A stretch of DNA of 64,000 nucleotides from an uncultured Porphyromonadaceae bacterium (lineage in GTDB: Bacteria; Bacteroidota; Bacteroidia; Bacteroidales; UBA12481). The stretch is from assembly GCA_964512915.1 (NCBI GenBank), contig CAZEKJ010000007.1:15572-79571 (forward strand). Reading direction: 5' to 3'. Under the pieces are notes generated by a model. It had not been told where the DNA came from, did no database searches, and saw only the letters and a program-made list of their open reading frames with translations. A program made the translations under genes and the position numbers. Below, in pieces: positions 8,122 to 63,290 of this stretch. The number at the start of each line of letters is the position of its first letter. The stretch's first letter is position 1.

Positions 8122-9429
8122 ATGAAACTTAAAGGCGAGATCCTTCCTGGTTATATTTTCCCGAAAAAATACACTAACTACCTTTTTTCATTACTCTTCC
8201 TGCTTTACATGTTCGATTATATCGACAGGATGGTTGTGTCGGCATTGCTTCCCTATATCAAGGCTGAATTCGGGACCAGCGACACCAAGCTGGGGATGCT
8301 GATGTCGGCTGTATACCTTTCGATTGTCATTCTTACTTTTCCCATTTCCCTGATCATTGACCGTTGGAGCCGCAGGCGGACCATCGGAGTTATGGCGGCT
8401 CTCTGGAGTCTGGCCACAGCCGCTGCAGCCCTGACCAAAAGCTTCGGTGCCCTGGTGACCACCCGTACCTTCATCGGAATTGGAGAAGCAGGCTATGCAC
8501 CCGGTGGATCAGCCATGATCTCAGGCCTCTATCCGGAGGAAAAACGTTCCTGGATGATGGGTCTATGGAATGCGGCCATTCCGCTAGGAAGTGCGATCGG
8601 TGTTGCCGGTGGCGGATTTATAGCAGCCCATTGGGGATGGCGCAGCGCTTTTGGGATCGTTGCATTGCCCGGGCTCATCATCGCACTGCTGTTTTTTTTC
8701 AGCAAAGATTACAAGACTGTCAAGCTTATAAAAAACAAGAAAGACAGGGTGAAGGGTGAAAATATTGTCAAGATAAAAATGACCACTAAGGACATGATCC
8801 GGGAATTCTCGGAGAAGCCCTCCCTCCTTTTCACCTATTTTGGGATGATGATGGTGGTTTTTACAACCACCTCCCTGCTGTTCTGGCTGCCCAGTTATTT
8901 CAGCCGCGAATACGGGATTCCGGAATCTCAGTCGAGCACCAAGGCATCACTGGTGATGCTGCTGGCTATTGTCGGGGCTCCGCTGGGAGGCTGGATTGTT
9001 GACCGCTGGCGCCGGAAGAAGCTGAATGCCCGACTGGTATTTCCGGGCATCACCTCCGTAGTAGCTGCGTTAGCCTGTTTTCTGGCCTTCGGGGTGCTAA
9101 GGGATGGTATGCAATATATCGCTCTTCTGATTTTCGGGGTTACCGTAACCATGTTTATCCCTGCAGCGGGTGCCGTAACACAGGATCTGGTGCATCCCGG
9201 CCTTCGGGCTACCTCCTATGCCATTGCAGTCGTCATTCAGAATTCACTGGGTGCCATGCTCGGACCGGTTGTAATCGGAGCCATCTCCGAAGCCACCAGC
9301 CTGGGTACCGCTCTTACCATTATGCCGCTCTTTGTGCTGGGTGCCGGCGTGCTGTTCCTGATCGGATCCCTGTATTATAAAAAGGATATCGCGAAGGTTG
9401 ATAAAATAGAGCTGGAAGCGGGAGAATAG
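8122..9429 (+). CDS. MFS transporter
   Basis: 435 aa with about 12 hydrophobic segments. MFS signature-like DRWSRRRTIG loop after TM2. Confidence 0.8.
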   Translation: MKLKGEILPGYIFPKKYTNYLFSLLFLLYMFDYIDRMVVSALLPYIKAEFGTSDTKLGMLMSAVYLSIVILTFPISLIIDRWSRRRTIGVMAALWSLATAAAALTKSFGALVTTRTFIGIGEAGYAPGGSAMISGLYPEEKRSWMMGLWNAAIPLGSAIGVAGGGFIAAHWGWRSAFGIVALPGLIIALLFFFSKDYKTVKLIKNKKDRVKGENIVKIKMTTKDMIREFSEKPSLLFTYFGMMMVVFTTTSLLFWLPSYFSREYGIPESQSSTKASLVMLLAIVGAPLGGWIVDRWRRKKLNARLVFPGITSVVAALACFLAFGVLRDGMQYIALLIFGVTVTMFIPAAGAVTQDLVHPGLRATSYAIAVVIQNSLGAMLGPVVIGAISEATSLGTALTIMPLFVLGAGVLFLIGSLYYKKDIAKVDKIELEAGE

Positions 9430-9436
9430 GGCAACA

Positions 9437-9596
9437 GGCAGAAGGCAGAAGGCAAAAATTAGTCTTAAGTCCTTATGGCTTAAGAAACAAGTTTAAGTAA
9501 CAAGTTAGGGCAGTAGGGCCGCATATATGTGGCCTTTTCTGCCCTTTTACTTTTTTCCTATTACTAATTTCTGCCTTCTGCCTTCTGCCCTCTGCC
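9437..9596. repeat. GGCAGAA-armed palindromic element, subfamily A
   Basis: Left arm GGCAGAAGGCAGAAGGCAAAAATTAGT, right arm ACTAATTTCTGCCTTCTGCCTTCTGCCCTCTGCC. The core shares CTTAAGTCCTTA with the copy at 63151. Confidence 0.9.
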
Positions 9597-17149: not shown

Positions 17150-17280
17150 GGCAGAAGGCAGAAGGCAGAAATTAGTAAGAGGTTAAAAGACAGAAGTAAT
17201 AAGTTAGAGCAGAGGCACCCTTCTTTCTTTTTACCTATTTCTTCTTCCTAATTTCTGCCTTCTGCCTTCTGCCCTCTGCC
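17150..17280. repeat. GGCAGAA-armed palindromic element, subfamily B
   Basis: Arms GGCAGAAGGCAGAAGGCAGAAATTAGTAAGAGG and CTTCTTCCTAATTTCTGCCTTCTGCCTTCTGCCCTCTGCC. The right end is flush with the GH95 stop (17281-17283). Confidence 0.9.
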
Positions 17281-24298: not shown

Positions 24299-24326
24299 TT
24301 TAATCTTTCTTCTTTCTTCTTTGATC
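24298..24326. repeat. CTTTAATCTTTCTTCTTTCTT pyrimidine repeat tract
   Basis: The 21-mer is the exact reverse complement of 43394-43414. Abuts the GH127 stop at 24327. Confidence 0.8.
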
Positions 24327-29563: not shown

Positions 29564-29615
29564 GTTACTGGTTACTGGTTGCTGGTTACTGGTTACCGGT
29601 TGCCGGTTGCCGGTT
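29564..29615. repeat. Heptamer array (GTTACTG/GTTGCTG/GTTACCG/GTTGCCG)x7.4
   Basis: Fills the spacer between the stop at 29621 and the ATG at 29563, with zero gap to the ATG. Confidence 0.9.
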
Positions 29616-29620
29616 AAAGG

Positions 29621-31804: not shown

Positions 31805-33160
31805 ATGAAAAGAATTATCCTTGTTCTGGTCTCCCTGGTTGCTGGCCTGCACGGATTTAGCCAGGGTCTTCAGTTTGAGAAAGCTGAATATGTTGCACGC
31901 CGCGAAAAACTGATGAAAGAGTGCCCGGATGGAATTATCCTCGTAATGGGAGCCTCGGCCCGTCCGGATTACTATCCGTTTATCCAGAACAACAACTTCC
32001 TCTATCTGTGCGGGATAGAGCTCGCTGATGCCTTTATTGCGATTGACCCGGTAAAAAAAGAGACGGTCCTCTTTGCCACCGTCAACAACTGGTACCTGAG
32101 AGAAACCGGCATCCCGGAAGATCTGATCACCAACCCCCTCGCCTACGCCGGCATCACCAAAATCCTGCCCACCAAAGACCTCCATACCTACCTCACTTCC
32201 TCAACCCCTTCAACCAATTCAACCAATTCAACCAATTCAACCAAAATCTACACCTGCTTCCTCCCCGAGGAGCTCCCCCGCGAGTGCTCCGGCGAAAAGG
32301 CCGGTTCCCTGAATAACACGCTGACCCGGAATCCCTGGGACGGCCGCCTGACAAAGGAGATGCAATTTGTTGAGCAGCTGAAGAAGCAGATTCCCGGAGC
32401 AGAAGTAAAAGATTGCTCGAAACAGATCCACAGCCTCCGGACCATCAAGTCACCTGCCGAGATCGCACTCATGCGCGAAGCGGGAAAAATCGGGGTTGAG
32501 GCTCATAAGGCGGTGATGAAAGCAACAAAACCCGGGGTTAATGAGTATGAGCTGGCCGCTCTGTTTGAATACACCTGCAAGCGGCTTGGGGCTGAGGAGC
32601 TGGCATACTACACGATCATCTGCACAGCAGAAAACCACACCGACCTGCATCACCATGGCTATCGGCGGACTCTGGAGGACGGTGATTTCCTGGTGGTCGA
32701 CGGCGGACCTGACCTGCATAATTATGATATCGACATCACCACATCATTTCCGGCCAACGGGAAGTTCACGCCGCGGCAGAAAGAAATTTACGAAGCCTGC
32801 AATGCCGTCCATGAGGCCTGTATGAAAGTATACCGTCCGGGGATTACCACCCAGCAGTGCAATAAGGAGGTGGCTGAAGTTCTTGAAAAGCTGGGATTTG
32901 ATACCAAATCAGAACTGATCCGCAATTTTGGCGCCGGATTCGGGCATTACGTGGGCATGGCCGTGCATGATGTCGGCGGGAGTCCAAAAGTTTTGGAACC
33001 CGGAATGATTTTTGCCAACGAACCGCTGGCCGTTTTTGCCAAGGAAAACCTTGGAGTACGCATTGAAGACACCATCCTGATAACAGAAAATGGGTGTGAG
33101 AATCTGACGAAGGGGATACCGAGGACGGTGGAGGAGATTGAGAGGTTTATGAAAAAGTAG
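31805..33160 (+). CDS. Xaa-Pro aminopeptidase (M24B family), secreted
   Basis: Signal peptide, creatinase-like N domain, and pita-bread domain with DGGPDLHNYDIDITTSF, HYVGMAVHDVG and VRIEDTILIT metal-ligand contexts. Confidence 0.8.
   Translation: MKRIILVLVSLVAGLHGFSQGLQFEKAEYVARREKLMKECPDGIILVMGASARPDYYPFIQNNNFLYLCGIELADAFIAIDPVKKETVLFATVNNWYLRETGIPEDLITNPLAYAGITKILPTKDLHTYLTSSTPSTNSTNSTNSTKIYTCFLPEELPRECSGEKAGSLNNTLTRNPWDGRLTKEMQFVEQLKKQIPGAEVKDCSKQIHSLRTIKSPAEIALMREAGKIGVEAHKAVMKATKPGVNEYELAALFEYTCKRLGAEELAYYTIICTAENHTDLHHHGYRRTLEDGDFLVVDGGPDLHNYDIDITTSFPANGKFTPRQKEIYEACNAVHEACMKVYRPGITTQQCNKEVAEVLEKLGFDTKSELIRNFGAGFGHYVGMAVHDVGGSPKVLEPGMIFANEPLAVFAKENLGVRIEDTILITENGCENLTKGIPRTVEEIERFMKK
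32201..32245 (+). repeat. In-frame 9-nt tandem repeat (TCAACCAAT)x5 inside the M24 peptidase gene
   Basis: Encodes STPSTNSTNSTNSTK between the N-terminal and catalytic domains. Confidence 0.9.
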
Positions 33161-33297
33161 GGCAGAAGGCAGAAGGCAGAAGGCAGAAATTAGTAAGAAG
33201 AAAGAGGTTAGAAGAAAAAAGGATCTTCGGCCCTAACTTCTTTCTTATTTCTTCTTACTTTTTACTAATTTCTGCCTTCTGCCCTCTGCCCTCTGCC
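33161..33297. repeat. GGCAGAA-armed palindromic element, subfamily B
   Basis: Exactly fills the gap between the convergent stops TAG (33158-33160) and TTA (33298-33300). Arms of 4 heptamers plus ATTAGTAAGAAG-type extensions. Confidence 0.9.
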
Positions 33298-35265
33298 TTA
33301 TTGAAGTTCCCTCCAGTCCTCGGTATTGCGCAGAACTTCCATCCTCAGCGCCGACATCCAGCTCACCAGCCAGTCGTGAAAGTAGCCAGGCTGACCGCTC
33401 CAGCGGGTCTGGAAGTAGGCTTCGGTTTGGGAGCCAGCCGGGCGGATCACTCCATGGTAAGGGGTTTTTCCGTCGGCAATGCACAGGTTACCATTATCCC
33501 AGGTGGCGAGAGCTTTTTCGCGCCAAATCAGGTTTCCGGTATATTTTGCGAGTTTCAGCCACTCCGGAACCAGCCACATGCCGAATGCATCAATATGATG
33601 ATGCTGGGTGGAAACGGCTGTTCCGCCGAAGGTATCGTACCCGTACTTCTTAAAATCGGAACTGTCGGATACCGGAACGGAATAGTGCCACATCCAGGAG
33701 GAGAGGTACCAGGAGGTTTTTTCGGCTTTATCCAGATAGGCGGAGTCGCCCGTGGCTTCAAAAAGCATCAGGGCTGCGCGCAGAATCGGCAATGACGACT
33801 CCTTGTCGATGCACCAGGTATCGAGCGCCCCGGCCGAAGTAAACCCATTCCGTGCAAACTCATCGAAATAAAAATCATAGGCCCTCTTTGCGGAAGCCAG
33901 GTAGGCATTGTTACCGGTAGCAGTGTAAGCTCTCATCATTCCGGGAATGATGAATGCACCCACGCTGCCTTCTCGGTAGAGGCAGGTTCCATCGGGTTTC
34001 CAGCCCTTGCCGTACTGTCCGGAGGCCTGCTGGTCCGAGAGCATGAAATCACAGATTCCCAGGGCGATGTCCTTATAATTGCTGCGGTCGATGCCGCATT
34101 TTTTGGTGGTTTCGTATGCCACCAGGAAATCGGCAGCAGCCTGACCGAGGTTACAGGCATCCACCACCTCCTCACTCTTTTCAATTCCGATAATATAGTC
34201 GAAATGCGTTCGGATCAGTCCGTTTGGCTGGGGCGCATATTTCGCCCAGGTATCCAGGCAAAGCAATCCCTTGTCGAGGGATTCCTGGTCTTTATTCCGG
34301 AGATAATCTTCAAGCAGCGAAATTGAAATACTGGCATTCTGCCCCGCCCATCCGATCTCGTATTTCCAGCCGGGCCGCTGAATCCAGCCTCCGTCGCGGA
34401 GCCAGAGTCCGATGCTGAATCCCCTGAATACTCCTTCCTCGGCCCACAGGCTCTCTTTAACAAAGCGTGTTGCCAGATTCCAGGCCTCCTGGGGTTCCGG
34501 CCGGGTAAGATCCGGATGCGGAATAATCTCCCAGGCTTTGCCCAGGAAGGTTTTAACTGCGGCATGATCGGGCAGGACCGGTGTTACCACAAGAACCGCG
34601 CTCATCACCAGGGTCTCCCCCTCTTTCAGTGTTAGATTGTCCCGGAATCCCGGAGCATACTGGTCGCGGTTGCTGTATCTCAGCGGCATCTCCTCCTCCG
34701 GCCAGATCAGCCGGTGGGTGGTTTTCGCCGATTCCGGCATCAGGGAGCAGGAGAAGGGTGTGCCTTTAGCGTCTAGGTCTCCCCACAAGGCCACCGCCCA
34801 TTTGCGGCCCTCCGAATAGGTGGCTCCCGGAACGGCCGATCGGGAAAAGGAGAAGCTCCACCAGGCTCCGTCCTTCTGAAATCCCTTGGGCTCAAGGCCC
34901 CTGCCCCATTCGTTGCCATTATAGCTGACCGACGGGATCATGAGCCACTCAGCCTTTCCCGGAACGGTAAAATCCAGGGTAAGCCTCAGGCTGTCAAGGC
35001 TATGCCCCGAAACATTCTTTATGGTTCGGGTGATCCTGTAAACGCCTTCACTTATCGGAATAATTTTTTCTGATGATTTAAGACCGTCGATGGCTAACGG
35101 AGTAATTGCACCAACGGTATCCCTCCCTTCGGTCAGCCATTGAACCTTGCCCGATTTTTGCCAGGAAAAGCCAGCCGTATTCGTTTTGCAGTTCTGAATC
35201 AGCAGCAATCCAAAAAGGGCGGCCCCGGTGAGGAGCACAACAGAAAACAAGGGTATCTTTTTCAT
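33298..35265 (-). CDS. Hypothetical lipoprotein-like protein, possibly (alpha/alpha)6 toroid enzyme
   Basis: 655-aa ORF with an N-terminal signal. The C-terminal half has repeated helical-hairpin-like motifs. No family recognised with confidence. Confidence 0.5.
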   Translation of the reverse strand: MKKIPLFSVVLLTGAALFGLLLIQNCKTNTAGFSWQKSGKVQWLTEGRDTVGAITPLAIDGLKSSEKIIPISEGVYRITRTIKNVSGHSLDSLRLTLDFTVPGKAEWLMIPSVSYNGNEWGRGLEPKGFQKDGAWWSFSFSRSAVPGATYSEGRKWAVALWGDLDAKGTPFSCSLMPESAKTTHRLIWPEEEMPLRYSNRDQYAPGFRDNLTLKEGETLVMSAVLVVTPVLPDHAAVKTFLGKAWEIIPHPDLTRPEPQEAWNLATRFVKESLWAEEGVFRGFSIGLWLRDGGWIQRPGWKYEIGWAGQNASISISLLEDYLRNKDQESLDKGLLCLDTWAKYAPQPNGLIRTHFDYIIGIEKSEEVVDACNLGQAAADFLVAYETTKKCGIDRSNYKDIALGICDFMLSDQQASGQYGKGWKPDGTCLYREGSVGAFIIPGMMRAYTATGNNAYLASAKRAYDFYFDEFARNGFTSAGALDTWCIDKESSLPILRAALMLFEATGDSAYLDKAEKTSWYLSSWMWHYSVPVSDSSDFKKYGYDTFGGTAVSTQHHHIDAFGMWLVPEWLKLAKYTGNLIWREKALATWDNGNLCIADGKTPYHGVIRPAGSQTEAYFQTRWSGQPGYFHDWLVSWMSALRMEVLRNTEDWRELQ

Positions 35266-35672: not shown

Positions 35673-35866
35673 GTTGCTGGTTGCTGGTTACGGGTATCGG
35701 GTATCGGGTATCGGGAGTCGGTTAAGGGGCTCTCCGTGGAATAGGATTTCCGCTTTCGCAGAAGTGATACCATCGGAGAGCCCTGTTCCCAACAACTGAT
35801 ACCCGATACCCGATACCAAATCGTAAATTGTCAATCGTAATTCCTCCGTCGTCCGTCGTCGGTCGG
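35673..35866. repeat. Composite spacer: heptamer array, GGTATCG-armed palindrome with a 10-bp inner stem and a GAAA-type hairpin, then TCGTAA and CCGTCGT repeats
   Basis: Arms at 35692-35715 and 35796-35817. Inner stem GGGCTCTCCG/CGGAGAGCCC at 35727-35736 and 35774-35783. Hairpin unit at 35745-35768. Confidence 0.85.
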
Positions 35867-38109: not shown

Positions 38110-39768
38110 ATGAAAACACAAACTCCTTCCCGGATCTTTCCTCTTTCTTCTTTCTTCTTTCTTCTTTCTTTCGCCTTTCGCCTTTCGCCTTTCGCCTTAA
38201 CGGCCCAGGTTATCCCCGATGCGTTATACTCCCGGGCCGAGCGCACCAGCTTCATGGAAACCTCGCTCAACGCGGATGTGCTGAATTTTGTGGATGCACT
38301 GGAGAAGGCTTGTCCACTGGTTACAACAGAAACTATCTGCACCACAAAACTGGGCAACCCGGTGAAGCTGGTGATCATGGCAAATCCGAGGGTTTCAACT
38401 CCCGAGGAGGCCCGGAAATCCGGGAAGCCGGTAATTTATATTCAGGCTAATATTCATTCCGGGGAGGTTGAAGGCAAGGAAGCCTCGATGCAGCTGATGC
38501 GGGAGATCGCCTATGGTCCGCTGAAGAGGCTACTCGACAATCAGATTGTGATGTTTTGTCCGAATTACAATCCGGATGGCAATGATAAACTGGGTGAGAA
38601 CCGGCCATCGCAGGAAGGCAGTCCGAAACTGACCGGAGTTCGTCCGAATGGCGATGGGCTCGACCTTAACCGGGAAGGGATGAAGGCTGAAGCCACCGAA
38701 ATGAAAGGCCTCCTGAAGAATGTTTTTGTCCGATGGGATCCGGCGCTCTTCATGGATCTTCATACCGATAATGGTTCCTGGCACGGATATATCTGCAATG
38801 TGGCTCCATCCTTTCAAACCGCCGCAATGCCAGAGCCCACCAACTTTACCTATGTTCTGCTGAAAGATGCCATGCAGCGGGTTATGTCCCGCTCCGGGCT
38901 GCCGATATACTGGCACGGATATCTGAATATGAGGCCCAATACCCAGGCTACTTTCACAGCCTATGACCACCTGCCGCGGTATATTGCGAATTATGTCGGA
39001 CTGCGAAACCGGATGGGAATTCTGAGCGAAGCTTTTCCCCATGATCATTTCGAGAAAAGGGTTCTTTCAAATTATTACCTGATACTATCCGTTCTTGAAT
39101 ATACCGGCAGCCATGCCAAAGAGATTCAGGAGATGCTGGCCAAAGCCGATCAGGAAACCATTGACCTGGTAAAGGCTCAGGCCGGCATCCTTCAGCGCGG
39201 CGTAAAATATCAGCTTGCTGAGGAGCCGGAGCCGGTTACCATGCTGATAAGGCAAACCGAGCCTTATACCCCGGAAGGGAGCACCCGCCAGCGTTTCCGT
39301 CCAACCGGAAAGCTCGGCTATGTGGAAAACGTAAAACACTCCAACCATTTCGTGCCCACGAAACTCAGCACCGTGCCCCGCACCTACATTTTCCCTGCCG
39401 AACTGGCAAAGGTGGCTGAAAAGCTAAGAGAGCACGGGATCGTGGTTAAGACCCTGGATAAAAAGGCTAAAGTGACAGGTGAAGAATTTGTCATCAGCAA
39501 ATTCACACAAAACCAGCGCGAAGGGTACGGCGGTCACAAGGTCGTTACTCTCGAGGGAGAATTCAAGCCGGTGAAAACAACCATCCCGGCCGGGTCCTTC
39601 TATGTCGACCTCGCCCAGCCGCTGGCCTGGCTAGCTTTCTACCTTCTTGAACCACAATCGGATGACGGACTGGTGTATTGGAATTATTTCGATGAATTCC
39701 TGATGAAGAAGGGGGTTGAGAAGGGTGGGGTGGGGTATCCGGTGGTGAAGACAACGCAGGAGTTGTAG
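38110..39768 (+). CDS. M14 family zinc carboxypeptidase, secreted
   Basis: IQANIHSGEVEGKEA (HxxE), NYNPDGND, LDLNRE and DLHTDNGS motifs. The N-terminal hydrophobic core is encoded by tandem repeats. Confidence 0.8.
   Translation: MKTQTPSRIFPLSSFFFLLSFAFRLSPFALTAQVIPDALYSRAERTSFMETSLNADVLNFVDALEKACPLVTTETICTTKLGNPVKLVIMANPRVSTPEEARKSGKPVIYIQANIHSGEVEGKEASMQLMREIAYGPLKRLLDNQIVMFCPNYNPDGNDKLGENRPSQEGSPKLTGVRPNGDGLDLNREGMKAEATEMKGLLKNVFVRWDPALFMDLHTDNGSWHGYICNVAPSFQTAAMPEPTNFTYVLLKDAMQRVMSRSGLPIYWHGYLNMRPNTQATFTAYDHLPRYIANYVGLRNRMGILSEAFPHDHFEKRVLSNYYLILSVLEYTGSHAKEIQEMLAKADQETIDLVKAQAGILQRGVKYQLAEEPEPVTMLIRQTEPYTPEGSTRQRFRPTGKLGYVENVKHSNHFVPTKLSTVPRTYIFPAELAKVAEKLREHGIVVKTLDKKAKVTGEEFVISKFTQNQREGYGGHKVVTLEGEFKPVKTTIPAGSFYVDLAQPLAWLAFYLLEPQSDDGLVYWNYFDEFLMKKGVEKGGVGYPVVKTTQEL
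38136..38196 (+). repeat. (TTCTTTC)n(GCCTTTC)n pyrimidine heptamer tract inside the M14 gene 5' end
   Basis: The tract is built from the reverse-complemented units (GGCGAAA and GAAGAAA families) of the purine tract at 43352-43414. Encodes the hydrophobic core FPLSSFFFLLSFAFRLSPFA. Confidence 0.9.
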
Positions 39769-39830
39769 GGCATAAGGGCACAAGGGCACAGGGGCACAGG
39801 GGCACAGGGGCACAAGGGCACAAGGGCACA
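39768..39830 (+). repeat. (GGGCAYARG)n array, 8 G-tracts
   Basis: Starts at the stop TAG (39766-39768) of the M14 gene. Confidence 0.9.
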
Positions 39831-44828: not shown

Positions 44829-45776
44829 ATGAGAACTGTTCTTACATCTCTATTCTGCCTGATCCTGCTCGGATTGACTGGCTGCAGCGGGTCATTTCCA
44901 ACCGACAAGCCCATAGTTGAAGGTTTCATCGATGTAACCGGCGGTAAGGTTTATTACAGGATCGTGGGAGCCGACAAGCCTGGAATCCCCCTTTTGGCTC
45001 TTCACGGCGGCCCCGGAGCCGCACATGATTATCTTGAGCCCCTGGAAGCCCTGGCCGATGAGCGTCCGGTGATCTTTTACGATCAGTTAGGCTGCGGCAG
45101 CTCCGACCGGCCGGGTGACACGACCCTCTGGACCCTCGAACGATTTGTGGATGAGCTGGCAACAATCAGGAAAGAGCTGGGATTAAAAAAGGTGCACATC
45201 ATGGGACAGTCATGGGGCAGCATGCTGGCCGCCGAATATATGGTTACAAAAAAACCCGCCGGAGTTGTGAGCCTGATCTTTTCCGGCCCCTGTCTGAGTG
45301 CGTCACGCTGGATTACCGACCAGCACGCCTGGATCAGCCAGATGCCCGATTCGATGCAGAACGCCATTCGGATTGGCGAGGAAACCGGAAATTTTGCGAC
45401 CCCCGAATACCAGAGTGCGCTCAACTACTTCTATTCCATTCATGTCTGCCGGATGAACCCATGGCCCGATTGCCTGAACCGTTCCCTGGCCAAGATGGGT
45501 GTGGATGTTTATGAGTACATGTGGGGACCCAGCGAATTCACCGCCACCGGAACCCTTAAGAATTTTGACCGCACCGGTGAAATGACCGGAATAAAAGTTC
45601 CAACCCTGTTTACCTGCGGGGAGTTCGACGAGGCGACCCCGGCAACTACCGCCTGGTACCAAAGCCTGCTCCCAGGATCAGAACTAAAAGTATTTCAGGA
45701 CGCCTCGCACGAGCACCATCTGGAAAAAGAATCCGAATATATCGCCGCAGTCAGGGAGTTTATCGGGAAACAATAA
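44829..45776 (+). CDS. Proline iminopeptidase-family hydrolase (S33), lipoprotein
   Basis: LHGGPGAAHDYL and GQSWGSMLA motifs. Signal LILLGLTGCSG. Confidence 0.8.
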   Translation: MRTVLTSLFCLILLGLTGCSGSFPTDKPIVEGFIDVTGGKVYYRIVGADKPGIPLLALHGGPGAAHDYLEPLEALADERPVIFYDQLGCGSSDRPGDTTLWTLERFVDELATIRKELGLKKVHIMGQSWGSMLAAEYMVTKKPAGVVSLIFSGPCLSASRWITDQHAWISQMPDSMQNAIRIGEETGNFATPEYQSALNYFYSIHVCRMNPWPDCLNRSLAKMGVDVYEYMWGPSEFTATGTLKNFDRTGEMTGIKVPTLFTCGEFDEATPATTAWYQSLLPGSELKVFQDASHEHHLEKESEYIAAVREFIGKQ

Positions 45777-47175
45777 TTCCGTATGGCGGAAGATGGATCC
45801 GGATCGATTCCAATCTGCTGTCCGCGGGCTCCGCAAAAAGAACCTCGCCCAGGTAACCATTAACTGAATAGTGCGGCTTCTCGAGTTCCTGCAAAGTTCC
45901 CGTCAGGTTGATGGCAACCCAGATCCAGTTTTTAAAATCGCCCAGAGTCCTGACAAAAGTAATGACCCCAGGATTATCATTCGGAAGTATCCGGACCTCA
46001 CCGTGTGCCAGGGCCGGGTATTGTTTCCGCAAGGAAATCAGCGTTTTATAAAAATTCCAGAGGGAATTCGGATCCTTGATTTGCTCTTCCACGCTAATCC
46101 CGTCGTTTGCCTTGCCATATCGCTTGTCCCACCAGATTCCTGAATTTTTGTACCAGTGGGCCATACCCGGACCTTCTGTGTTCTTGTACCATTCGAAGGC
46201 TTCCCGCCTTGAAATCTGGTCTCCGTCGGTAGGCACCTCATGCTTGATTCCTTTCATCCCGATTTCCTGACCGTAATAGATCAGGGGCGTTCCTTTCAGC
46301 AGCAGGTTAAAGGCCGCACCCACCTTTTCCCTGGCCAGATCCCCGTTCATCAGGGAGGCAAAACGATCCACATCGTGATTCTCAATAAAAATCAGCTGGT
46401 CCTTGCCGGGGGGAGTCATCAGATACGTGGTATCCAGCTTGTTCTGGATCTGGTTCTTGTCGAGGGAATTGATGGCCATGTACAAGGGAAAGGCAAAAAC
46501 AAGATCGAGGTCCGCCTTCTTGAAAATCTCCGTCCCATACTCCATCCAGTTGGCCTGCTCCCCGATAATCCGGATATTTGGATTTATTGCCCGGAGTTCA
46601 TCAAAAAGCGGCTTCCAGAAACCAGCATAAAGATTGGTTAACCTGCCCGTAAAGTCGAGGTCATCCATGATGTGATCGATGCGGAACCCATCCACTCCGT
46701 CGTCGAACTTCCCGTCCTTGTTGGGATCCAGAAAGTAGTGGTAGAGATCATAGAAATATTTTTTTACCTCCGGATGATTCAGGTTGGCCATATTGAGACC
46801 CCGGGAGGTTCCGTCATAGGATATCACCTTTCCCCAGGGTGTTCCAGCCAGCTGATAATCCGGCTTGCTGGCATACCAATCGGAGCCCTCGGTTACATAC
46901 TGGGTCTCCATATCGAGGTAAAACCTCATTCCCCGCTTATGGATCTCCCTGAGCAGTTCCGTGAATTCCTTCATGGTGCCGTATTCCGGATCAATCTTCC
47001 AATAATCCTTGGCGAAATAATTGTGATAGGATTCAGATTCCATCAGCGGCAGCGTGAGAATCGAGGTAACCCCCAGATCCTGCAGGTAATCGAGCTTCTT
47101 TTTCAGTCCGTTAAGATCCCCGATCCGGTCGCCGTTGCTGTCATAAAAGCTTCTCGGCAGCACGTAATAAACCAC
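45760..47175 (-). other. GH13 alpha-amylase-family catalytic module
   Basis: GH13 conserved regions: YYVLPRSFYDSNGDRIGDLNG, DGFRIDHIMD, IIGEQANW and FIENHDVDRF. Confidence 0.85.
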
Positions 47176-50100
47176 CTCAGGAGCCGGTTTCTTTGTCTCC
47201 GGCTCAAACTCAATCATCTGGGTGACATACTTTTCCTTCGATTCCGGGAACCGAAACTCCCGCTCCTCAATGATCCGGTCGCGGATCACCCGGATCTTTC
47301 CCCCGCTGCCGCTCAATCCCTCCACTTTAACCCGATATGTTGCCCCGGCAAGTTCATCGGAAATAATCTTGAAACCGGTGGATGAGTCGCCGGGTGCCGG
47401 ATGATGAACAACAGGCAGTACCCCGATACCACCGCTGTGATTGACGATCACCCGGATCTTATCATAGAGGGGAGCCATAGGAGTAATGCTTTGCCGGAGT
47501 TGTGAGAAATCGCCCGGGATTTTTGCTACAAGTCTTCCGATATCGATGGTACCCCCCTCAATCCGTGTACCGGGAAGCAGCTCAATATCCATTCCTATAT
47601 ATATTCGCGTGGTATCGGCAGCCTGATCTCCGGTTTTACTGCGCACGAAATCCAGCTGAGTCTGGCCGGTTCGCCTCACCTGCGTCATGGAAAAGGAGTG
47701 AACCCCGATCCGGATATTCTCAACGGTCACCGAATCCCAATCCATGGGGAACTCCGGATTCAGGTATACATAATTTTTAATCGCATCGGGTTTGAATCCC
47801 AGCATCCCGTCGATGGCCGGCTGGATCACCATGGTTTCGCTCCAGCACTGATGGCGGCATACCCCGAAATATTTGTATTGGGTGCCATGGAGCACCTCCT
47901 CAATATAGCCCAGCGACCAGTTTTTGTAAATCAGCAGGTTGCTCATCAGTTTAGAGTACCCCTGAGCGGAATTGCCGGCCGCAAAATCTCCGAGGGAAGC
48001 CCAGCCGGTAAAGAGCGGCCACACACTTCCTGTATGGTAACCACCCGGCGCGAAGAATTTCGCCTTTTCACTCACGATCCGGGTTCCCCAGTCGGTGGTG
48101 AAATTGGGTGACGCGATCCTGTCAACCACGGCCCTTTTCTGTTCCTGGCTCCTGATCTGTCCCCAGTGCAGGGGGATGGCCGTCATCACCGAGGGCTCGG
48201 TCATGTAGGTGCCATCCTTGAAAATCCCGTGGTTGAAGAATTTCGTTTCCGGGTTCCAGAATCCGGTGTTCAGTTTATCCAGAACCACTTTCGCCTCATC
48301 GGTATATTTTGTTTGCAGTTCTTTAAGCCCGATATTTTCAGCCATATACGCTGCCTGCCCCAGTGCTTCGGCCCAACAGGAGACCATATACTGCGTGGTA
48401 TGGGTGACATAAAGATCACCGCCCTCTTCCCAGCCGTGTCCCTGCTGGGTGTTCTCGATCAGGTGGTCGCGGTCGGTATCGGTGGAATAACAGAAATCGA
48501 TGGCCTTTTTAATGAATGGCCACTCCTTGCGGATGAAAGCGGTGTCGCCGGAGTGATGTAAGTATTTGCCAGCCAAAACTATATAAAGAGGTGTGGCATC
48601 CGCCGCATCAAAATGTGCGATGCCTGAGGTGGTCAGTTCATGGTAGATTTTTCCTGAAACGTCCTGATACCTGGAAAAAAGCTCCAGGATGGTTTTTACA
48701 CGTTCAAAATCGCCATAATCGAGAACGGCAAACCCGCTCCAGACGGCATCCCGACCGAAATACCACGCGTAGCCTGGACGGCCGTTGACTTTTTGGGCTC
48801 CGTTCCAGCCGTAATCCGTGGTAGCGTATCCCGCAACCAGTGAGCGGCCCACACCGGGGGTATTCACGATAAACCGGTCGCTGCCCACCAGTGCCCACTT
48901 ATAGCCGGTATTGAAATCGGCATCCGGACCGGTGATGGTCAGTTTTCCATTGAAGAGTGATTTTGCATAATCCACAGCTGCAGCATAAACGGCATCCGGC
49001 TTCATCGCCGCCCTGCGGTAGGCTGAAACAGCCTCGGTGACACCGGTAGCCGAGGTCCCCAGCACCACATCGGCCATACTTTCCGGTTCCATGACCGTCT
49101 CCAAGGTTAGTGCCACCCTGAGTCCCTGATCCGGAGATCCGGTTTTAGCCGTAACAGGCACATTCATCCCGATGGTCATGGCGAAATCGCCCGATTTATC
49201 CCTGACAACCCAGGCGTTCAGCACCTCATTCCAGGAGTAGCGGATTTCGCCGGTAACCTTTTCCGAATAGGGCCACATAAACCGGAGGTTGCTTTTCAAG
49301 CTGATTACCAGATCGATCGGCTGGTCCCCGGAATAAGCATAGTGGATCACCGCATTCCCGTCGGTCGGGTGTACGGTGATGATCTCCTTCAGGAGGCTTT
49401 CCCCGAATGCGTAGATCCGGGTAAAAGATTCCGGTCTAACCTCGATGGCCGGTTTCAATGTATTCAGCGCGATTTCCTTATCGGGATTATGCATTCTGAT
49501 TTTAACCTGATAATCGCGCAGAGCCATAACCGGATGCGCCCACACCTCATCGATCCCGCCGGGCTCCTTGCCCAGAATCACCATTCTCTCGCCGGCAATA
49601 TCCCACATGTTCTTAGGCTGGGCCGTGGCCTTGAGGGTGATCTCACTATCATGCTGCACCCAGGGCTCAGGCTTCCCTAACCACAACTTTATACCTGCTT
49701 CTTCTTCCTGATTTCTGCCCTCTGCCCTCTGCCCTCTGCCTTCCTCTTCAGCTACGACAGGCGGTCCATAATCCCAATTCCTCACCTGGCTCACCATCGT
49801 CTGGCCGTCCAGGTAATCCAGCACATTCCGGGTAAATTTTTCCAGATGGGAGCTGTTATAATTGGGCATGTCATAATCCAGATAGGCCCCGATGGCCAAA
49901 ATTTTTCCTTTTCCCAGGGTGTATTCCGTGATCAGTTTATTCTGATCATAGAGGAATATGTATGCCCAGTCAACCGCTACAACCTTTCCGTCGGGAACAG
50001 CCTCTCCGAACCATCCTACTCTCCGTACATTGATGTCCTGTTTTGGCGCATAGACATAGGCCCCGCCAAGCATCCCGTCGAAAATCGGGTGACTGCGGAA

Positions 50101-51630
50101 GGCGTGCAGTCCCAGTTTCCGGCCGTTTCCTTCATCCACCAGTTTCGTATAGGAAACCGTTGGGGCCACCTTCTCCACCCCCAGGTATGGGAGCAATCTG
50201 ACAGCGTCCATGGTCAGCAGCAGGCTGCCGCCCTGCTCAACATGCCTGCGAAACTTCCCGGCCCACTCCGCTGCCTTTTTATCCAGGTCAACGGTTGAAT
50301 CCGGCTCGTGATACCAGAGCACTTTGCCATAGGGGGTTGGGGTCCCCGCTTTCGCGGGGATGACAAGTGCATCTGCACCATCCGGGTTCGCCGGGATGAC
50401 AAGAGCCTGATCTTGAATATCTTGTTTCTTTCTTTCGCCCCCGGGTCGAGCCCGGGGCAGGCTTTTCGCCTTTCGCCTTTCGCCTTGTTTCTCCAGCGCA
50501 ACCCCCTGCTCCCAATTTACGACATACTGCCACCAATTATTCAGATGCCCGTCCTCCGGATTGATCCCTTCGAAATGCGGAATATGGCTGAACCACCAGC
50601 TCATGTACCCTTCGTGTGAACATTGCCACTCGGAACAGTCCACCGTTCGGGTCATATCGGGCTTAATATCAGGATAATAGTTCCATCCATCGGCACATGT
50701 GGTAACCGGCGTTTTGTTCACCCAGTCATAATCAAACATGCCGTTGGGGGGAAAATGGATATTCCCGATGTTCGCCAGTCCGGGGTGTGTTTTGTTGAAG
50801 CGGGTATATTTCTCCCAGTTGTTGGGGACGGGCTCGTTATAATCCCAGCGGCCGTAAAGGTGCCACATCACGGATTCGAAGCGGTGACCGTAGCTTTCGA
50901 GTGCCAGCGACATTTTCCGTTCGTAGTTCAGTCCCATTACCACCAGAAGTTCCTTGTTCGAAGTGGTGGTTGTGGGTTCGGAGTTGAGCCAGAAGCCGGT
51001 GGCGCCGCAATAGTTGGATTCCCACATGCCTCCGTAAGGAAACGACCAGACCCACACCTCATTGATCTGATTTTTATCGCGCATTTTGTCGAAGCCGTAG
51101 TGCTCCACAAACTCCTTGTAATCGAAATGCGTTCCGGTCTCCTTGAGGGTTTTCCAGTCGGGCTCCATCAGCAGGTTGACCATCTCATCGGTGCCGAGCA
51201 TCACATTATTATCGTTCCTCCGGGAGAAGAACTTCCCGTCATCGATGATCTTTACCACCTCATACTGTACCACCCCATGGCTGATCTTTTCCAGGGCGGC
51301 CTCGTACTCCCGGTTCAGCACCATCGGATCGTTCCACATGAAGGTGCGGCCCGGGGTTTTCACCACCTCATGGAGCCGCTTGCCGCCATATTGAGGCAGC
51401 GCCGGATCCTGGATGACGACCGCGACTTTCACCTTGATGGGCTTGGCGGGGGGGAGCTGGGCGAAGGCAGAAGGCAGAGGGCAGAAGGCAGAAATCAGTA
51501 AGAAGAAGGAAGGAAGAAGGAACAGGTTTCTGCCAGCCTGTAGCTTCAGAGCCGGAGCGGAGCTGGGACATAAAACCCCGGGCTGAACCCCGGGGTTACT
51601 GATGTCTGTCGAAGACGATTTTCTAATCAT
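45760..51630 (-). CDS. 1956-codon composite ORF: unknown module A, unknown module B, glycogen-debranching (GDE_C/amylo-alpha-1,6-glucosidase-like) module, GH13 alpha-amylase-family module
   Basis: Uninterrupted frame. Module junctions consist of repeat modules otherwise seen in intergenic DNA. Whether it is one polypeptide is uncertain (see findings). Confidence 0.55.
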   Translation of the reverse strand: MIRKSSSTDISNPGVQPGVLCPSSAPALKLQAGRNLFLLPSFFLLISAFCPLPSAFAQLPPAKPIKVKVAVVIQDPALPQYGGKRLHEVVKTPGRTFMWNDPMVLNREYEAALEKISHGVVQYEVVKIIDDGKFFSRRNDNNVMLGTDEMVNLLMEPDWKTLKETGTHFDYKEFVEHYGFDKMRDKNQINEVWVWSFPYGGMWESNYCGATGFWLNSEPTTTTSNKELLVVMGLNYERKMSLALESYGHRFESVMWHLYGRWDYNEPVPNNWEKYTRFNKTHPGLANIGNIHFPPNGMFDYDWVNKTPVTTCADGWNYYPDIKPDMTRTVDCSEWQCSHEGYMSWWFSHIPHFEGINPEDGHLNNWWQYVVNWEQGVALEKQGERRKAKSLPRARPGGERKKQDIQDQALVIPANPDGADALVIPAKAGTPTPYGKVLWYHEPDSTVDLDKKAAEWAGKFRRHVEQGGSLLLTMDAVRLLPYLGVEKVAPTVSYTKLVDEGNGRKLGLHAFRSHPIFDGMLGGAYVYAPKQDINVRRVGWFGEAVPDGKVVAVDWAYIFLYDQNKLITEYTLGKGKILAIGAYLDYDMPNYNSSHLEKFTRNVLDYLDGQTMVSQVRNWDYGPPVVAEEEGRGQRAEGRNQEEEAGIKLWLGKPEPWVQHDSEITLKATAQPKNMWDIAGERMVILGKEPGGIDEVWAHPVMALRDYQVKIRMHNPDKEIALNTLKPAIEVRPESFTRIYAFGESLLKEIITVHPTDGNAVIHYAYSGDQPIDLVISLKSNLRFMWPYSEKVTGEIRYSWNEVLNAWVVRDKSGDFAMTIGMNVPVTAKTGSPDQGLRVALTLETVMEPESMADVVLGTSATGVTEAVSAYRRAAMKPDAVYAAAVDYAKSLFNGKLTITGPDADFNTGYKWALVGSDRFIVNTPGVGRSLVAGYATTDYGWNGAQKVNGRPGYAWYFGRDAVWSGFAVLDYGDFERVKTILELFSRYQDVSGKIYHELTTSGIAHFDAADATPLYIVLAGKYLHHSGDTAFIRKEWPFIKKAIDFCYSTDTDRDHLIENTQQGHGWEEGGDLYVTHTTQYMVSCWAEALGQAAYMAENIGLKELQTKYTDEAKVVLDKLNTGFWNPETKFFNHGIFKDGTYMTEPSVMTAIPLHWGQIRSQEQKRAVVDRIASPNFTTDWGTRIVSEKAKFFAPGGYHTGSVWPLFTGWASLGDFAAGNSAQGYSKLMSNLLIYKNWSLGYIEEVLHGTQYKYFGVCRHQCWSETMVIQPAIDGMLGFKPDAIKNYVYLNPEFPMDWDSVTVENIRIGVHSFSMTQVRRTGQTQLDFVRSKTGDQAADTTRIYIGMDIELLPGTRIEGGTIDIGRLVAKIPGDFSQLRQSITPMAPLYDKIRVIVNHSGGIGVLPVVHHPAPGDSSTGFKIISDELAGATYRVKVEGLSGSGGKIRVIRDRIIEEREFRFPESKEKYVTQMIEFEPETKKPAPEVVYYVLPRSFYDSNGDRIGDLNGLKKKLDYLQDLGVTSILTLPLMESESYHNYFAKDYWKIDPEYGTMKEFTELLREIHKRGMRFYLDMETQYVTEGSDWYASKPDYQLAGTPWGKVISYDGTSRGLNMANLNHPEVKKYFYDLYHYFLDPNKDGKFDDGVDGFRIDHIMDDLDFTGRLTNLYAGFWKPLFDELRAINPNIRIIGEQANWMEYGTEIFKKADLDLVFAFPLYMAINSLDKNQIQNKLDTTYLMTPPGKDQLIFIENHDVDRFASLMNGDLAREKVGAAFNLLLKGTPLIYYGQEIGMKGIKHEVPTDGDQISRREAFEWYKNTEGPGMAHWYKNSGIWWDKRYGKANDGISVEEQIKDPNSLWNFYKTLISLRKQYPALAHGEVRILPNDNPGVITFVRTLGDFKNWIWVAINLTGTLQELEKPHYSVNGYLGEVLFAEPADSRLESIRIHLPPYGIIVSR
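47176..49692 (-). other. Glycogen debranching enzyme-like (GDE_C) module
   Basis: YFGRDAVWSGFA, ADATPLYIVLAGKY, GHGWEEGG and GGYHTGSVWPLFTGWAS motifs are typical of amylo-alpha-1,6-glucosidase-type (alpha/alpha)6 enzymes. Confidence 0.7.
49698..49740. repeat. Single arm of a subfamily-B GGCAGAA element inside the composite ORF
   Basis: CTTCTTCTTCCTGATTTCTGCCCTCTGCCCTCTGCCCTCTGCC is followed by TTC where intact copies have TTA. No partner arm is present. Confidence 0.85.
49741..50340 (-). other. Module B of the composite ORF (unknown function, about 200 aa)
   Basis: PYGKVLWYHEPDS...NWDYGPPVVAEEE. A GTG lies at its start. Ends exactly where intact repeat copies carry a stop codon. Confidence 0.45.
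50341..50484. repeat. Composite of intergenic-type modules inside the composite ORF
   Basis: On the minus strand: (GGCGAAA)x3, GC hairpin CCCCGGGCTCGACCCGGGG, GAAAGAAAG, then two GTCATCCC...GAAA/GAAC hairpin units (50379-50400 and 50341-50364). Confidence 0.85.
50485..51459 (-). other. Module A of the composite ORF (unknown function, about 325 aa after the repeat-encoded N terminus)
   Basis: Compositionally normal coding sequence, PAKPIKVKVAVVIQDP...NNWWQYVVNWEQGVALEKQ. No family recognised. Confidence 0.5.
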
Positions 51631-51718
51631 TCCAGAGAGTTGTTATAATGAATACCTTATAAGACTTTAAAATTTTCACTTTCCTTTCTGCCTTTCTGCC
51701 CTCTTGCCCTTCTGCCCT
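51460..51718. repeat. GGCAGAA-type element whose left arm is translated as the N terminus of the composite ORF
   Basis: Left arm at 51460-51525 (GGCGAAGGCAGAAGGCAGAGGGCAGAAGGCAGAAATCAGTAAGAAGAAGG). Right arm at 51679-51718 (CTTTCCTTTCTGCCTTTCTGCCCTCTTGCCCTTCTGCCCTA). The ORF ATG at 51630 lies in the core. Confidence 0.7.
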
Positions 51719-61278: not shown

Positions 61279-63150
61279 ATGAAAACCATTATTTTCCTAT
61301 CTGCCCTGGCGCTTTTTTGCTCCTGCAACCAGACTCCAACCACCACGATTTTCGTTGGTTCAGAGGGTAACGATCTTAACACAGGTTCAAAAAATGAGTC
61401 CCTTCGAACACTTGAAGCAGCTCAGAAGCTTGTTCGTGAAATGCGGGAAAAAGAACCCGGAAAATCCGTAAAAGTTATCCTCGGAGCAGGTACCTGGCAT
61501 ATTGATAAGCCTCTGTTTTTTGGTTCTTCTGACGGGGGATCCGGAAAGGCAACCGTTACCTGGGAAGGCCAGCCCGATGGCGGGACCGTGATTTCCGGCG
61601 GTACGCTGATCGGCGGTTTCAGGGATGAAGGGTATGGGATCTGGTGGGCGCCGGTCGACAGCACCAGAGTTTTTGAACAGCTCTATGTTAATGGAGTCCG
61701 CGCTACCCGAGCCCGTTACCCGAATATGGATGATCCCAAGCCGAGAATCTACCTGGATCATTCCTCCTGGATTTACAATCAGGACTCGACGGTAAAAAAT
61801 ATTAAAGTCACGCTGCGCGACAGCACCCTGACGGATCGTCTTTTTCTTGGAAATACCTGCGAGGTGGTCGTCTTCAAGGACTGGACGATATCCCGGTTTC
61901 ATGTTTCCGGCTTTATATCTGAACCGCCCGCCCTGCTGCTAAAGCCGCCGTTTGCACTGTTTGACGGACCCTACAATTCGATTTTTGCCGGAAATTCAAA
62001 CCGGTACAGCTGCTATCTCGAAGGGGATCCCACCTTCGTGGACCAACCGGGCGAATGGGCGCTCGATAGGGCTGGCAGCCGGGTGTTTTACAAACCGCTG
62101 CCTGGACAGACCCTTGAGAGTGTTACGGTGATTGCGCCCATGGCACAGCAGCTCGTGGTTATGAAAGGAGACGCGGAAAGTCCAATTACGAATTTAGAGT
62201 TCCGAAGTATAAGGTTTGAAAATGCCGCATACCTGTTGCCGGAATATAATCACGATGGGATGCAGGCTGCTTTTTATTATCCGGGAAATTCGGAAAAAAC
62301 GACTGGCCCGGGTCTGATTCCTCCAGCCATCGAGATGGCATGGGCGGAAAATTGCAAGGTTTCGGACTGTACCCTGCGAAACATTGGCGGGAATGGCATT
62401 TACCTTCGTGAGGGGTGTCGGAATAACCGGATAAAAAATAGTATTGCCGAAGATATCGGAGGGAACGGGGTCATGATCGGGCTCACGTTTGACCCGAAAG
62501 CGGACTCGCCACTCCTGCCTGTCAACAACGTGGTCACCGGATCCACCATCCATAATTGCGGGGTCGGGTTTCACGGCTCGGTCGGGATTTGGCTCGGCTT
62601 CTGCGCGGAAAATGAAATATCGGACTGTGAGGTATATGACCTTCCGTACACCGGCATTTCGGTGGGCTGGCAGTGGAATCCGCAACCCACCTCCTCGAAA
62701 AACAACCGCATCCTGAATAACCGTATTCATCACGCCATGCAGATGCTTGGCGACGGTGGCGGAATTTATACCCTCGGATTCCAGCCGGGTTCCGTCATAT
62801 CAGGAAATGAAATTCACGATATCCTGAGGAGCGAACTGAACCATGCCTCAGACAATAACGGGATGTTTATCGATGAAGGCAGCAAGGGGTACCTGATTGA
62901 GAACAACACCATACGAAACACGGCACATACCAGCATCCGCGGCCACCGGGCTGCCGGAGTAGAGCTTATCGGAAACACCTTTTATTCCGGCGAACAGGCT
63001 GCCATCAGCCACACCCCGCCTTACGAAGCCATGATCTTCGTGAACAAAGACACCACAGTGTCCTGGAAAAACCCCGGATGGCCAGTGGAGTGGGGGTATC
63101 CGGAGAAGATTACGGCGTTTACGATGAAAGGGAATACCTTTAAGAAATAA
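61279..63150 (+). CDS. Right-handed parallel beta-helix repeat lipoprotein (pectate-lyase-fold)
   Basis: Signal LSALALFCSCNQ. Repeated NxxIxNxGGNGI-type turns (NIGGNGIYL, DIGGNGVMI, GDGGGIYT). Confidence 0.7.
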   Translation: MKTIIFLSALALFCSCNQTPTTTIFVGSEGNDLNTGSKNESLRTLEAAQKLVREMREKEPGKSVKVILGAGTWHIDKPLFFGSSDGGSGKATVTWEGQPDGGTVISGGTLIGGFRDEGYGIWWAPVDSTRVFEQLYVNGVRATRARYPNMDDPKPRIYLDHSSWIYNQDSTVKNIKVTLRDSTLTDRLFLGNTCEVVVFKDWTISRFHVSGFISEPPALLLKPPFALFDGPYNSIFAGNSNRYSCYLEGDPTFVDQPGEWALDRAGSRVFYKPLPGQTLESVTVIAPMAQQLVVMKGDAESPITNLEFRSIRFENAAYLLPEYNHDGMQAAFYYPGNSEKTTGPGLIPPAIEMAWAENCKVSDCTLRNIGGNGIYLREGCRNNRIKNSIAEDIGGNGVMIGLTFDPKADSPLLPVNNVVTGSTIHNCGVGFHGSVGIWLGFCAENEISDCEVYDLPYTGISVGWQWNPQPTSSKNNRILNNRIHHAMQMLGDGGGIYTLGFQPGSVISGNEIHDILRSELNHASDNNGMFIDEGSKGYLIENNTIRNTAHTSIRGHRAAGVELIGNTFYSGEQAAISHTPPYEAMIFVNKDTTVSWKNPGWPVEWGYPEKITAFTMKGNTFKK

Positions 63151-63290
63151 GGCAGAAGGCAGAAGGCAAAAATTAGACTTAAGTCCTTAATCCTTAAGTA
63201 AAAAGTTAAGTATGAAGGAGGGCACAAAGCCAACCTTTTTACTTTTCTATCTTATTTCTTTTTACTAATTTCTGCCTTCTGCCTTCTGCC
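63151..63290. repeat. GGCAGAA-armed palindromic element, subfamily A
   Basis: Exactly fills the gap between the convergent stops TAA (63148-63150) and CTA (63291-63293). Confidence 0.9.

Follow-up and report, generated by a model that had tools for sequence, protein, structure and literature searches.

In a 64,000-nt stretch of an uncultured Porphyromonadaceae bacterium of the order Bacteroidales (contig CAZEKJ010000007.1 of assembly GCA_964512915.1, positions 15,572 to 79,571; hereafter the window), palindromes of 130–160 bp armed with GGCAGAA heptamers lie directly against the stop codons of neighboring genes. These palindromes are a genuine dispersed repeat family, and the family is an undescribed, lineage-specific, non-coding repeat of uncultured Bacteroidales. 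The last two bases of a flush stop are common to the element, and the T is not. Judging from orthologous gene ends, the positions of the stops are ancestral and belong to the genes. The explanation that we favor, with slightly better than even confidence, is a repeat resembling REPINs (hairpins built from repetitive extragenic palindromic, REP, sequences) and miniature inverted-repeat transposable elements (MITEs), which would lie flush with stops because a compact genome leaves little other room and whose hairpin is probably active as RNA.

The copies in the window and the stop codons beside the copy that served as our anchor are as follows.

33161..33297, no strand assigned: anchor copy, occupying the entire gap between the convergent genes 31805..33160 (plus strand) and 33298..35265 (minus strand)
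33158..33160, plus strand: stop codon TAG of the gene for aminopeptidase P; its T comes from the host sequence, and its AG keeps the register of the arm repeat unit
33298..33300, minus strand: stop codon TAA (TTA on the plus strand) of the 655-aa gene, at the codon where nine orthologues of 655 aa also end
9430..9596, no strand assigned: subfamily A copy, abutting the TAG of the MFS transporter gene 8122..9429
17150..17280, no strand assigned: subfamily B copy, the right side of which abuts the TAA (TTA at 17281) of a GH95 gene
63151..63290, no strand assigned: subfamily A copy, spanning the gap between the convergent genes 61279..63150 (plus strand) and 63291.. (minus strand)
51459..51718, no strand assigned: degenerate fifth copy with a left arm at 51459-51493 and an eroded right arm at about 51683-51718
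49706..49740, minus strand: half copy (inner arm plus right arm) inside the 1956-aa open reading frame (ORF) 45760..51630

The four full palindromes listed in an initial annotation of the window are all present, the first of them running from 9430 or 9437 to 9596; the degenerate fifth copy and the half copy, both of which overlap the 1956-aa ORF, were absent from that list. Each full copy consists of an arm of three to four tandem GGCAGAA-type units, an ATTAG(T) junction, a variable center and the reverse complement of the arm. At the anchor, the left arm holds four GGCAGAA units (33161-33188) followed by the junction ATTAGT, the inner arms are purine-rich and then pyrimidine-rich with a small loop between them, and the right arm occupies 33270-33297. 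The 14-mer GGCAGAAGGCAGAA, allowing up to two mismatches, occurs 28 times in the window against 0.64 expected. The stops named in the initial annotation were likewise located where it had placed them, on the left (TAG at 33158, TAA at 63148, and TAG at 9427, the last followed by a degenerate unit, GGCAACA) and on the right (TTA at 17281, TTA at 33298, CTA at 63291). Each of them closes a long ORF, and every gene end that faces a copy is flush with its first unit. The left side of the copy at 17150 faces a gene start, with AAA before the arm and no stop, and the copy at 9430..9596 lies 44 nt upstream of the start of the next gene (9641) and has an orthologous copy in the related locus L125.

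A genome-collection scan with a pattern joining the arm to the junction, GGCAGAAGGCARAAATTAG, recovered more than 96 stretches among the matches listed, nearly all of them from about 15 uncultured Bacteroidales or 'Porphyromonadaceae' metagenome genomes; the carriers include the closed chromosome OW818688.1. The wider sample therefore comprised 97 sequences, namely the window and 96 loci (about 0.7 Mb) from about 15 Bacteroidales metagenome genomes, and labels such as L037, L065 and L133 denote these stretches of sampled relatives. The nearest to the window among the matches listed is CAYQFT01, with 82–92% DNA identity across the syntenic block. The 97 sequences hold 42 full elements and 86 single arms (48 left, 38 right). 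The arms have two to seven heptamer units and ragged outer ends, so that the sole fixed motif is the inner ATTAGT junction, and in the 42 elements they are 91% Watson–Crick complementary, which amounts to terminal inverted repeats. Despite diverse cores, a common plan is visible, the inner left arm being purine-rich with TAAG-type words and the inner right arm pyrimidine-rich. Dozens of loci that are not orthologous to one another, from more than 10 species, have the same arm, ATTAGT junction and inner-arm words. Alignment upheld the division of the window copies into subfamilies A (9430, 63151) and B (17150, 33161), members of which also occur in other genomes, and the suggestion that whole elements had been copied was borne out, since more than 10 species have these arms, this junction and the subfamily cores in common. 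Two subfamilies, JBBQOG and CAILAQ, have cores of about 100 nt that are present in many copies and in both orientations within one genome. A scan of viral contigs with three arm units returned unrelated simple repeats only, none with the junction; the arm sequence was not found in the literature searched, and a search on short tandemly repeated repetitive (STRR) sequences and hairpins gave nothing relevant.

One member of the family carries an insertion of its own. In OW818688.1 (about 1.83 Mb; L040 7647-8000 together with L102 1-1438), an IS110-family transposase gene (PF01548 and PF02371) lies within a GGCAGAA palindrome, having entered the loop of an inner hairpin between GTCATCCCGACG and CGTCGGGATGAC; the orthologous element in JBAZTE (L076 2263-2436) has no such interruption. 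This 1.8-kb insert between two arms was considered as an autonomous element and rejected, as it is an IS110-family insertion into an inner hairpin.

The composition of the termini was examined on 151 arm sides with at least three units. The initial annotation had written the ends as the inverted pair TARGGCAG...CTGCCYTA, a stop codon on each strand. The AR, or YT on the right, is indeed element sequence, with A at position -2 on 83% and A or G at -1 on 84% of all sides, but the T at -3 is present on only 50%. The A at -2 remains at 83% (62 of 75) where -3 is not T. TAR occurs on 51% of the sides at which a long ORF ends and on 28% of the others (p=0.005), and this 28% is close to the chance frequency of T given a fixed AR. 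Aligning the copies showed that the T of the stop codon is not a conserved terminus, as TAR falls to chance where no gene ends. The AR pair is the tail of a partial repeat unit (GAA, GAG or AAA).

The preference for stop codons extends well beyond the window. An exactly flush stop was found on 25 of 87 gene-end sides, and these make up 25 of the 52 stops within 0–9 nt of an arm, as against an expectation of 5.2 for each position (p=3e-12). Among the flush stops, TAA occurs 13 times, TAG 12 times and TGA never, against a background of 47/21/31% (p=1.7e-4), and the TGA deficit weakens with distance from the arm. Because the arms are free of stops in every frame, the stop must lie where gene and arm meet; about 12 genes without a T at the arm edge read through the arm to the TAG or TAA inside the ATTAG(T) junction and gain tails (for example, GRGQRAEGRN).

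Comparison of orthologous gene ends speaks directly to the ownership of the stops. If copies had brought them, proteins beside a copy should differ in length from those without one; orthologues lacking the element instead end at the same codon at four independent sites, and no truncation or extension beyond 0–2 codons was seen, except that the aminopeptidase of L037 is 6 residues longer. At the anchor, aminopeptidase P of the window ends in FMKK and those of L086 (without an array), L133 and L145 in LMKR, FMKH and FMKN, respectively, each followed by its stop, and the convergent protein has 655 aa in nine of the nine closest relatives. L133 and L145/L146 (76% amino-acid identity) have no spacer at this site, and their overlapping stops, TTAA or CTAG, share the TA; given such ancestral overlap, at least one of today's two stops would have been rebuilt by the insertion. 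At 63151, both flanking genes end in KK, and the TFKK ending of one is kept in many orthologues; in L148 (87% identity) a GGCAAAG/GGCGAAA...TTTCGCC palindrome stands there instead, flush on both sides, with the partner gene unchanged in length (IIKK versus IIRK before the stop). At 9430, the element is common to the window and L125 and is replaced by a (GAAGGAG)n array in L065, with the same stop codon in all three. The AGE/ALE and DW endings at two further sites are also kept without the element. Small C-terminal differences of one or two codons do occur, as in L132 and L144 (FMK before the stop) and in L096 (two codons longer than L105).

These comparisons also show that a given nucleotide between convergent genes can be taken by several unrelated palindrome families, one substituting for another. 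In the anchor gap, L144 (95% amino-acid identity) has 46 nt left of a palindrome from an unrelated family (GAGATTCGAGCGCAGAG...), L147 has a complete palindrome of that family, 152 nt long and flush at both ends, and L132 (84%) has an element with GGCGCAA/TTGCGCC arms. The convergent gap 11083-11208 carries five different fillers in five genomes, all behind the same DW-stop. On the evidence of these alignments, the filler is swapped on a timescale of less than 5% protein divergence.

The setting is a compact genome. Only 8% of the window is intergenic, and tandem arrays of period 6 or more are present in 21 of 33 gaps of at least 20 nt, including all seven convergent gaps. They cover 28% of intergenic versus 0.7% of coding bases, a 40-fold enrichment, and periods of 7 (213 arrays) and 8 (41 arrays) prevail. 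Of 46 gene ends, about 22 have a stop at which, or across which, an array or repeat palindrome begins. Arrays of other units also reach stops (22 of 90 within -3..0), often with the stop, TGA included, inside the repeat unit. The GGCAGAA palindromes are the most widespread class among the 7- and 8-nt arrays that dominate this intergenic DNA. Intergenic DNA rich in heptamer repeats is known from scattered bacteria, a few Bacteroidetes among them, and arrays ending 1 nt before start codons are also on record (PMC4679880).

In the favored explanation, the real ends of the element would be partial units of the heptamer GGCARAR, AR on the left and YT on the right. Where genes abut or share a stop TA, a tolerated copy would have to sit exactly at the gene boundary, and the flush position would follow from this packing, as abutting or overlapping genes leave almost no other room. 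A copy landing between T and A, either at the center of an NTAN overlap or after the T of a stop, would yield T-AR...YT-A, so that both strands would again read TAR where their stop codons had been, with no target sequence duplicated. Copies landing elsewhere near a gene end would be purged or would leave short arm-encoded tails. Landing of this kind would explain the conserved stop positions, TAA and TAG as the only flush stops, an excess of TAG, a T at chance level away from gene ends, and a minority of arm-encoded tails.

Once settled, the hairpin of about 65 bp may act as a two-way transcription barrier or as a stem protecting 3' ends between close-packed genes, and a role as a two-way terminator or 3'-end stabilizer is plausible on the basis of predicted folding and position. 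For the window copies, the RNA of either strand is predicted to form a single long hairpin, with energies of -64 to -83 kcal/mol and z-scores of -8 to -12, and at least one gene 3' end is touched by 30 of the 34 classifiable elements. The flanks are A-rich upstream and T-rich downstream, with 40–49% A at -7..-4, and the outer flanks are only moderately T-rich. The window contained no Rfam hit at the gathering threshold, and the anchor copy matched only sub-threshold microRNA-precursor models, which are generic for long hairpins. The initial annotation had also remarked that all arm mismatches are A on the left and C on the right of the plus strand, which would make them G-U wobbles in a minus-strand RNA. 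In the window this holds for six of seven mismatches, but across the 42 elements A.C (40) and G.T (37) are about equal and 13 of the 42 carry both, so the asymmetry is a small-sample effect and the implied wobble disappears. Neither a strand-specific G-U wobble nor a link to GC skew was found in these 42 elements.

Several observations weigh against the explanation just given, some touching the spread of the copies and others the hairpin. No REP-associated tyrosine transposase (RAYT) was noticed among the window proteins scanned, a scan that was not a genome-wide search for RAYT. The sampled DNA contained no mobilizing gene, the only transposase seen being the nested IS110-family gene. Nor was any recent insertion found for which a relative of more than 95% DNA identity has a clean empty site, so the proposed landing between T and A without duplication draws on relatives that are 76% identical. 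Moreover, the loci were retrieved with the arm-plus-junction pattern, so that one side per locus is ascertained. With regard to RNA function, a canonical apex of GC stem and T run is present in 11 of 42 cores on either strand, compared with 64 of 420 random segments (15%); given so slight an enrichment, the idea that every core holds a native terminator was rejected. The inner arms pair with their own partners at -13.6 and with those of other elements at -12.9 kcal/mol (p=0.08), without element-specific covariation; as they pair no better with their own partner, covariation lends no support to a selected RNA structure. The bias toward 3' ends over divergent gaps is weak, at 11:19:4 against 1:2:1 (p=0.19). 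The long perfect duplex could equally be a target of RNase III or be relevant at the DNA level only.

Alternative explanations have to be weighed against the same evidence. The strongest form of the initial proposal, in which TARGGCAG...CTGCCYTA are the true termini and copies enter gene 3' ends with their own stops, truncating or extending the proteins, seems to us unlikely. It is consistent with the restriction of flush stops to TAA and TAG with TAG enriched, with TAR beside arms where no gene ends (for example, TTA at 9597), with the C-terminal differences of one or two codons in L132, L144 and L096, with the need for one new stop if ancestral stops overlapped, and with stops lying inside the repeat unit in other array families. 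However, the T is present on only half of the sides, TAR falls to chance away from gene ends, and element-free orthologues keep the same stop codon at four independent sites. The 10-nt flank identity at the copy at 63151 (TTAAGAAATAR) was considered as proof of element-encoded C-termini and rejected, given that the KK ending is ancestral in the orthologues. A TA-targeting MITE of the IS630/Tc1-mariner kind, in which RGGCAG...CTGCCY duplicates its target TA and a TA shared by overlapping stops becomes two TAR stops, would account for the empty sites of L133 and L145, where the stops share a TA within TTAA or CTAG. It would also fit the several unrelated palindrome families at the same sites that read TA/R...Y/TA, and the predominance of TA at -3/-2 (64 occurrences) over neighboring offsets (2–13). 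Against this, left and right TA are uncoupled (8 elements with both, 7 left only, 10 right only and about 15 with neither, where about 6.8 with both are expected under independence), and on sides free of stop-codon selection TAR is no commoner than by chance, with the A at -2 still at 83%. Were the anchor copy precisely excised, CAA-TA-CTT would remain and the 655-aa gene would have no stop, and other families lie flush with TGA. No IS630-like gene was seen in the sampled DNA, and the nested IS110-family transposase sits in an inner hairpin and is not bounded by the arms. TA target duplication was therefore rejected as a general rule, given the uncoupled TAs and the chance-level TAR where no gene ends, and we regard this MITE as quite improbable.

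A different possibility is that nothing moved, the palindromes having grown in place from terminator stems by 7-nt slippage and template switching, with their resemblance convergent or concerted. The strong dominance of period 7 with many locus-specific unit types would suit such growth, as would the largely unique cores, the differing unit numbers and variants of orthologous copies, the joint change of both arms of L148 to GGCGAAA/TTTCGCC, and the many arrays of other families that hold a stop in register, as if a boundary heptamer had been amplified. Heptamer slippage has been proposed for long simple repeats of prokaryotes (Mrazek 2007, as cited in PMC4679880). This account is nevertheless unlikely. 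Dozens of non-orthologous loci, spread over more than 10 species, have an identical arm, junction and set of inner-arm words, and within a single genome the JBBQOG and CAILAQ cores of about 100 nt occur repeatedly, some in one orientation and some in the other. In addition, half copies lie inside a coding region, and non-homologous fillers replace each other wholesale at one site between 95%-identical relatives. That unrelated families take turns at the same nucleotide also raises the idea of a dedicated process that writes hairpin or array elements at ORF boundaries, whether stop-codon-homing mobile DNA or templated rewriting of intergenic sequence. Both stops would then be rebuilt upon landing, a few elements would be co-opted as signal peptides or protein linkers, and random insertions would not simply have survived passively; we attach a low probability to this idea.

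Known systems share some features with the palindromes and differ in others. Like the RAYT-mobilized REP sequences and REPINs of Proteobacteria, the GGCAGAA palindromes are non-coding, multi-copy and intergenic, are found mainly downstream of gene 3' ends or between convergent genes, fold into long hairpins of about 100–150 nt, fall into within-genome subfamilies and serve as landing sites for IS110-family elements. IS110 relatives target REP sequences. The arms here, however, are heptamer arrays of variable unit number and not a fixed palindrome of 20–40 nt, no GTAG-type head motif is present, the hosts are Bacteroidales, and the abutment to stops is exact. With MITEs such as Correia of Neisseria and Nezha of cyanobacteria they share terminal inverted repeats, a length of 130–220 bp, dispersal as subfamilies and the occasional copy inserted in frame within a gene; they differ in having no consistent target-site duplication, in their ragged partial-unit ends and in the lack of a related autonomous insertion sequence with shared termini in the sampled DNA. 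The heptamer arrays known as long simple sequence repeats or STRR sequences, including the TAACTGA repeats, resemble them in being dominated by tandem 7-nt units that lie almost exclusively in intergenic DNA (Mrazek 2007; MacGregor 2015, PMC4679880). In both, some arrays end 0–1 nt from a start codon, and overlap with gene ends is occasional. In contrast, the present units form inverted pairs with a conserved junction that are copied between loci as a hairpin element, and they accumulate at stop codons, not start codons. Intrinsic bidirectional terminators likewise place a stable hairpin between convergent genes with A-rich upstream and T-rich downstream flanks, but the stem here is many times longer and the stop codon itself is paired in it.

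The arms have also entered coding sequence. Their pyrimidine-rich strand encodes hydrophobic peptides, and the signal peptide FLLPSFFLLISAFCPLPSAFA, followed by Q, of the 1956-aa GH13/GDE-like glycosidase is translated from an arm together with its inner arm at 51459-51540 (minus strand). This signal peptide is conserved in the L101 orthologue as FHLPSSFLFLIFAFCLLPSAFS, again followed by Q. The half copy at 49706-49740 (minus strand) is translated as EEEGRGQRAEGRNQEEEAG, a charged loop insert of 13 residues without a counterpart in L101. Other in-frame arrays were observed as well. At 50464-50486 (minus strand), (TTTCGCC)x3.3 encodes ..RRKAKGEK.. in a poorly conserved linker of the same ORF, and at 32201-32244 a 9-nt array, (TCAACCAAT)x5, lies between the parts of the aminopeptidase P gene that encode the AMP_N and M24 domains; DNA similarity to the orthologues begins only downstream of this array.

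The remaining spacers of the window were surveyed alongside the palindromes. Gaps built from arrays are located at 7958-8016, 11084-11222, 12629-12712, 13930-13995, 15497-15678, 24295-24328, 29564-29616, 35673-35865, 38135-38198, 39767-39882, 43352-43523, 56619-56785, 58177-58264 and 60552-60582. Their vocabulary of units includes GGGCACA(A), GTCTCTC(A), RCCGGTT, CGGGTAT/GATACCC, AAGGCGA and ATTATCAC, among others; the units are often set as inverted pairs, and several of the words are shared with other genomes of the lineage. Arrays of the self-complementary unit (AACCRGY)n/(RCCGGTT)n at 29564-29616, 35673-35689, 43477-43523 and 58177-58264 reach or nearly reach start codons, the first of them forming a complete stop-to-start spacer, and thereby recall the TAACTGA repeats of PMC4679880. 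RCCGGTT-armed palindromes (15530-15640 and 56660-56750; also L080, L094 and L150) have as their core a conserved pair of small hairpins, tgtcattccggcgaaagccggaat and cctgactttcgtcaggatgaca, which is also present in other genomes and represents the type of target that the IS110 element entered. The (GGGCACA/GGGCATAG)n arrays at 11084-11125, 12629-12712, 13930-13995, 39767-39830 and 41145-41174 have G3 tracts 4–5 nt apart and are formally capable of forming G-quadruplexes. Two of them are followed between convergent genes by the non-complementary (GTCTCTC)n, so that no hairpin results.

Other palindromes in the spacers also meet stops. Units of 23 nt (GCCNGTTAGCCGAGCGCAGCGAG) make up palindromes or arrays at 1832-2030, where they fill a whole convergent gap flush with both stops, and at 3034-3108, where they abut the stop at 3106. 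A second palindrome family with unique, non-tandem arms, GAGATTCGAGCGCAGAGTG...CACTCTGCGCTCGAATCTC, was identified at 13996-14046 and at L125 5735-5880, L147 2291-2442 and L144 2526-2572. It too lies flush with stops, and the TGA at 14047 of the window falls within its terminal sequence. A small conserved hairpin, ccccagacttcagtctgggg, recurs in the fillers of different genomes (L065 5680-5700, L096 at about 1400 and 3790-3850, L108 at about 2300), one copy showing a two-sided change (ccccggacttcagtccgggg). Finally, a low-GC island (42–47%) at 20000-23100 holds a RhuM-family fragment, a HigB-type toxin and a putative antitoxin, and its gaps are without tandem arrays, as if it had been acquired recently.

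The GGCAGAA palindromes offer a concrete case in which gene packing, and not a special terminus, would explain why a repeat lies flush with stops. Genes here abut or overlap, and nearly all of the spacer DNA is secondary repeat sequence, the turnover of which outpaces 5% protein divergence. Assemblies are broken by such elements, and several contigs end inside arms. Because the arms are open in all six frames, they lengthen ORF calls and lend themselves to misannotation as N- or C-terminal protein sequence, even as one arm now serves as a conserved signal peptide. If the elements do home to gene boundaries, they would represent a new targeting mode for bacterial mobile DNA, and if the hairpins are terminators, they would provide ready natural two-way insulators for the engineering of Bacteroidales.

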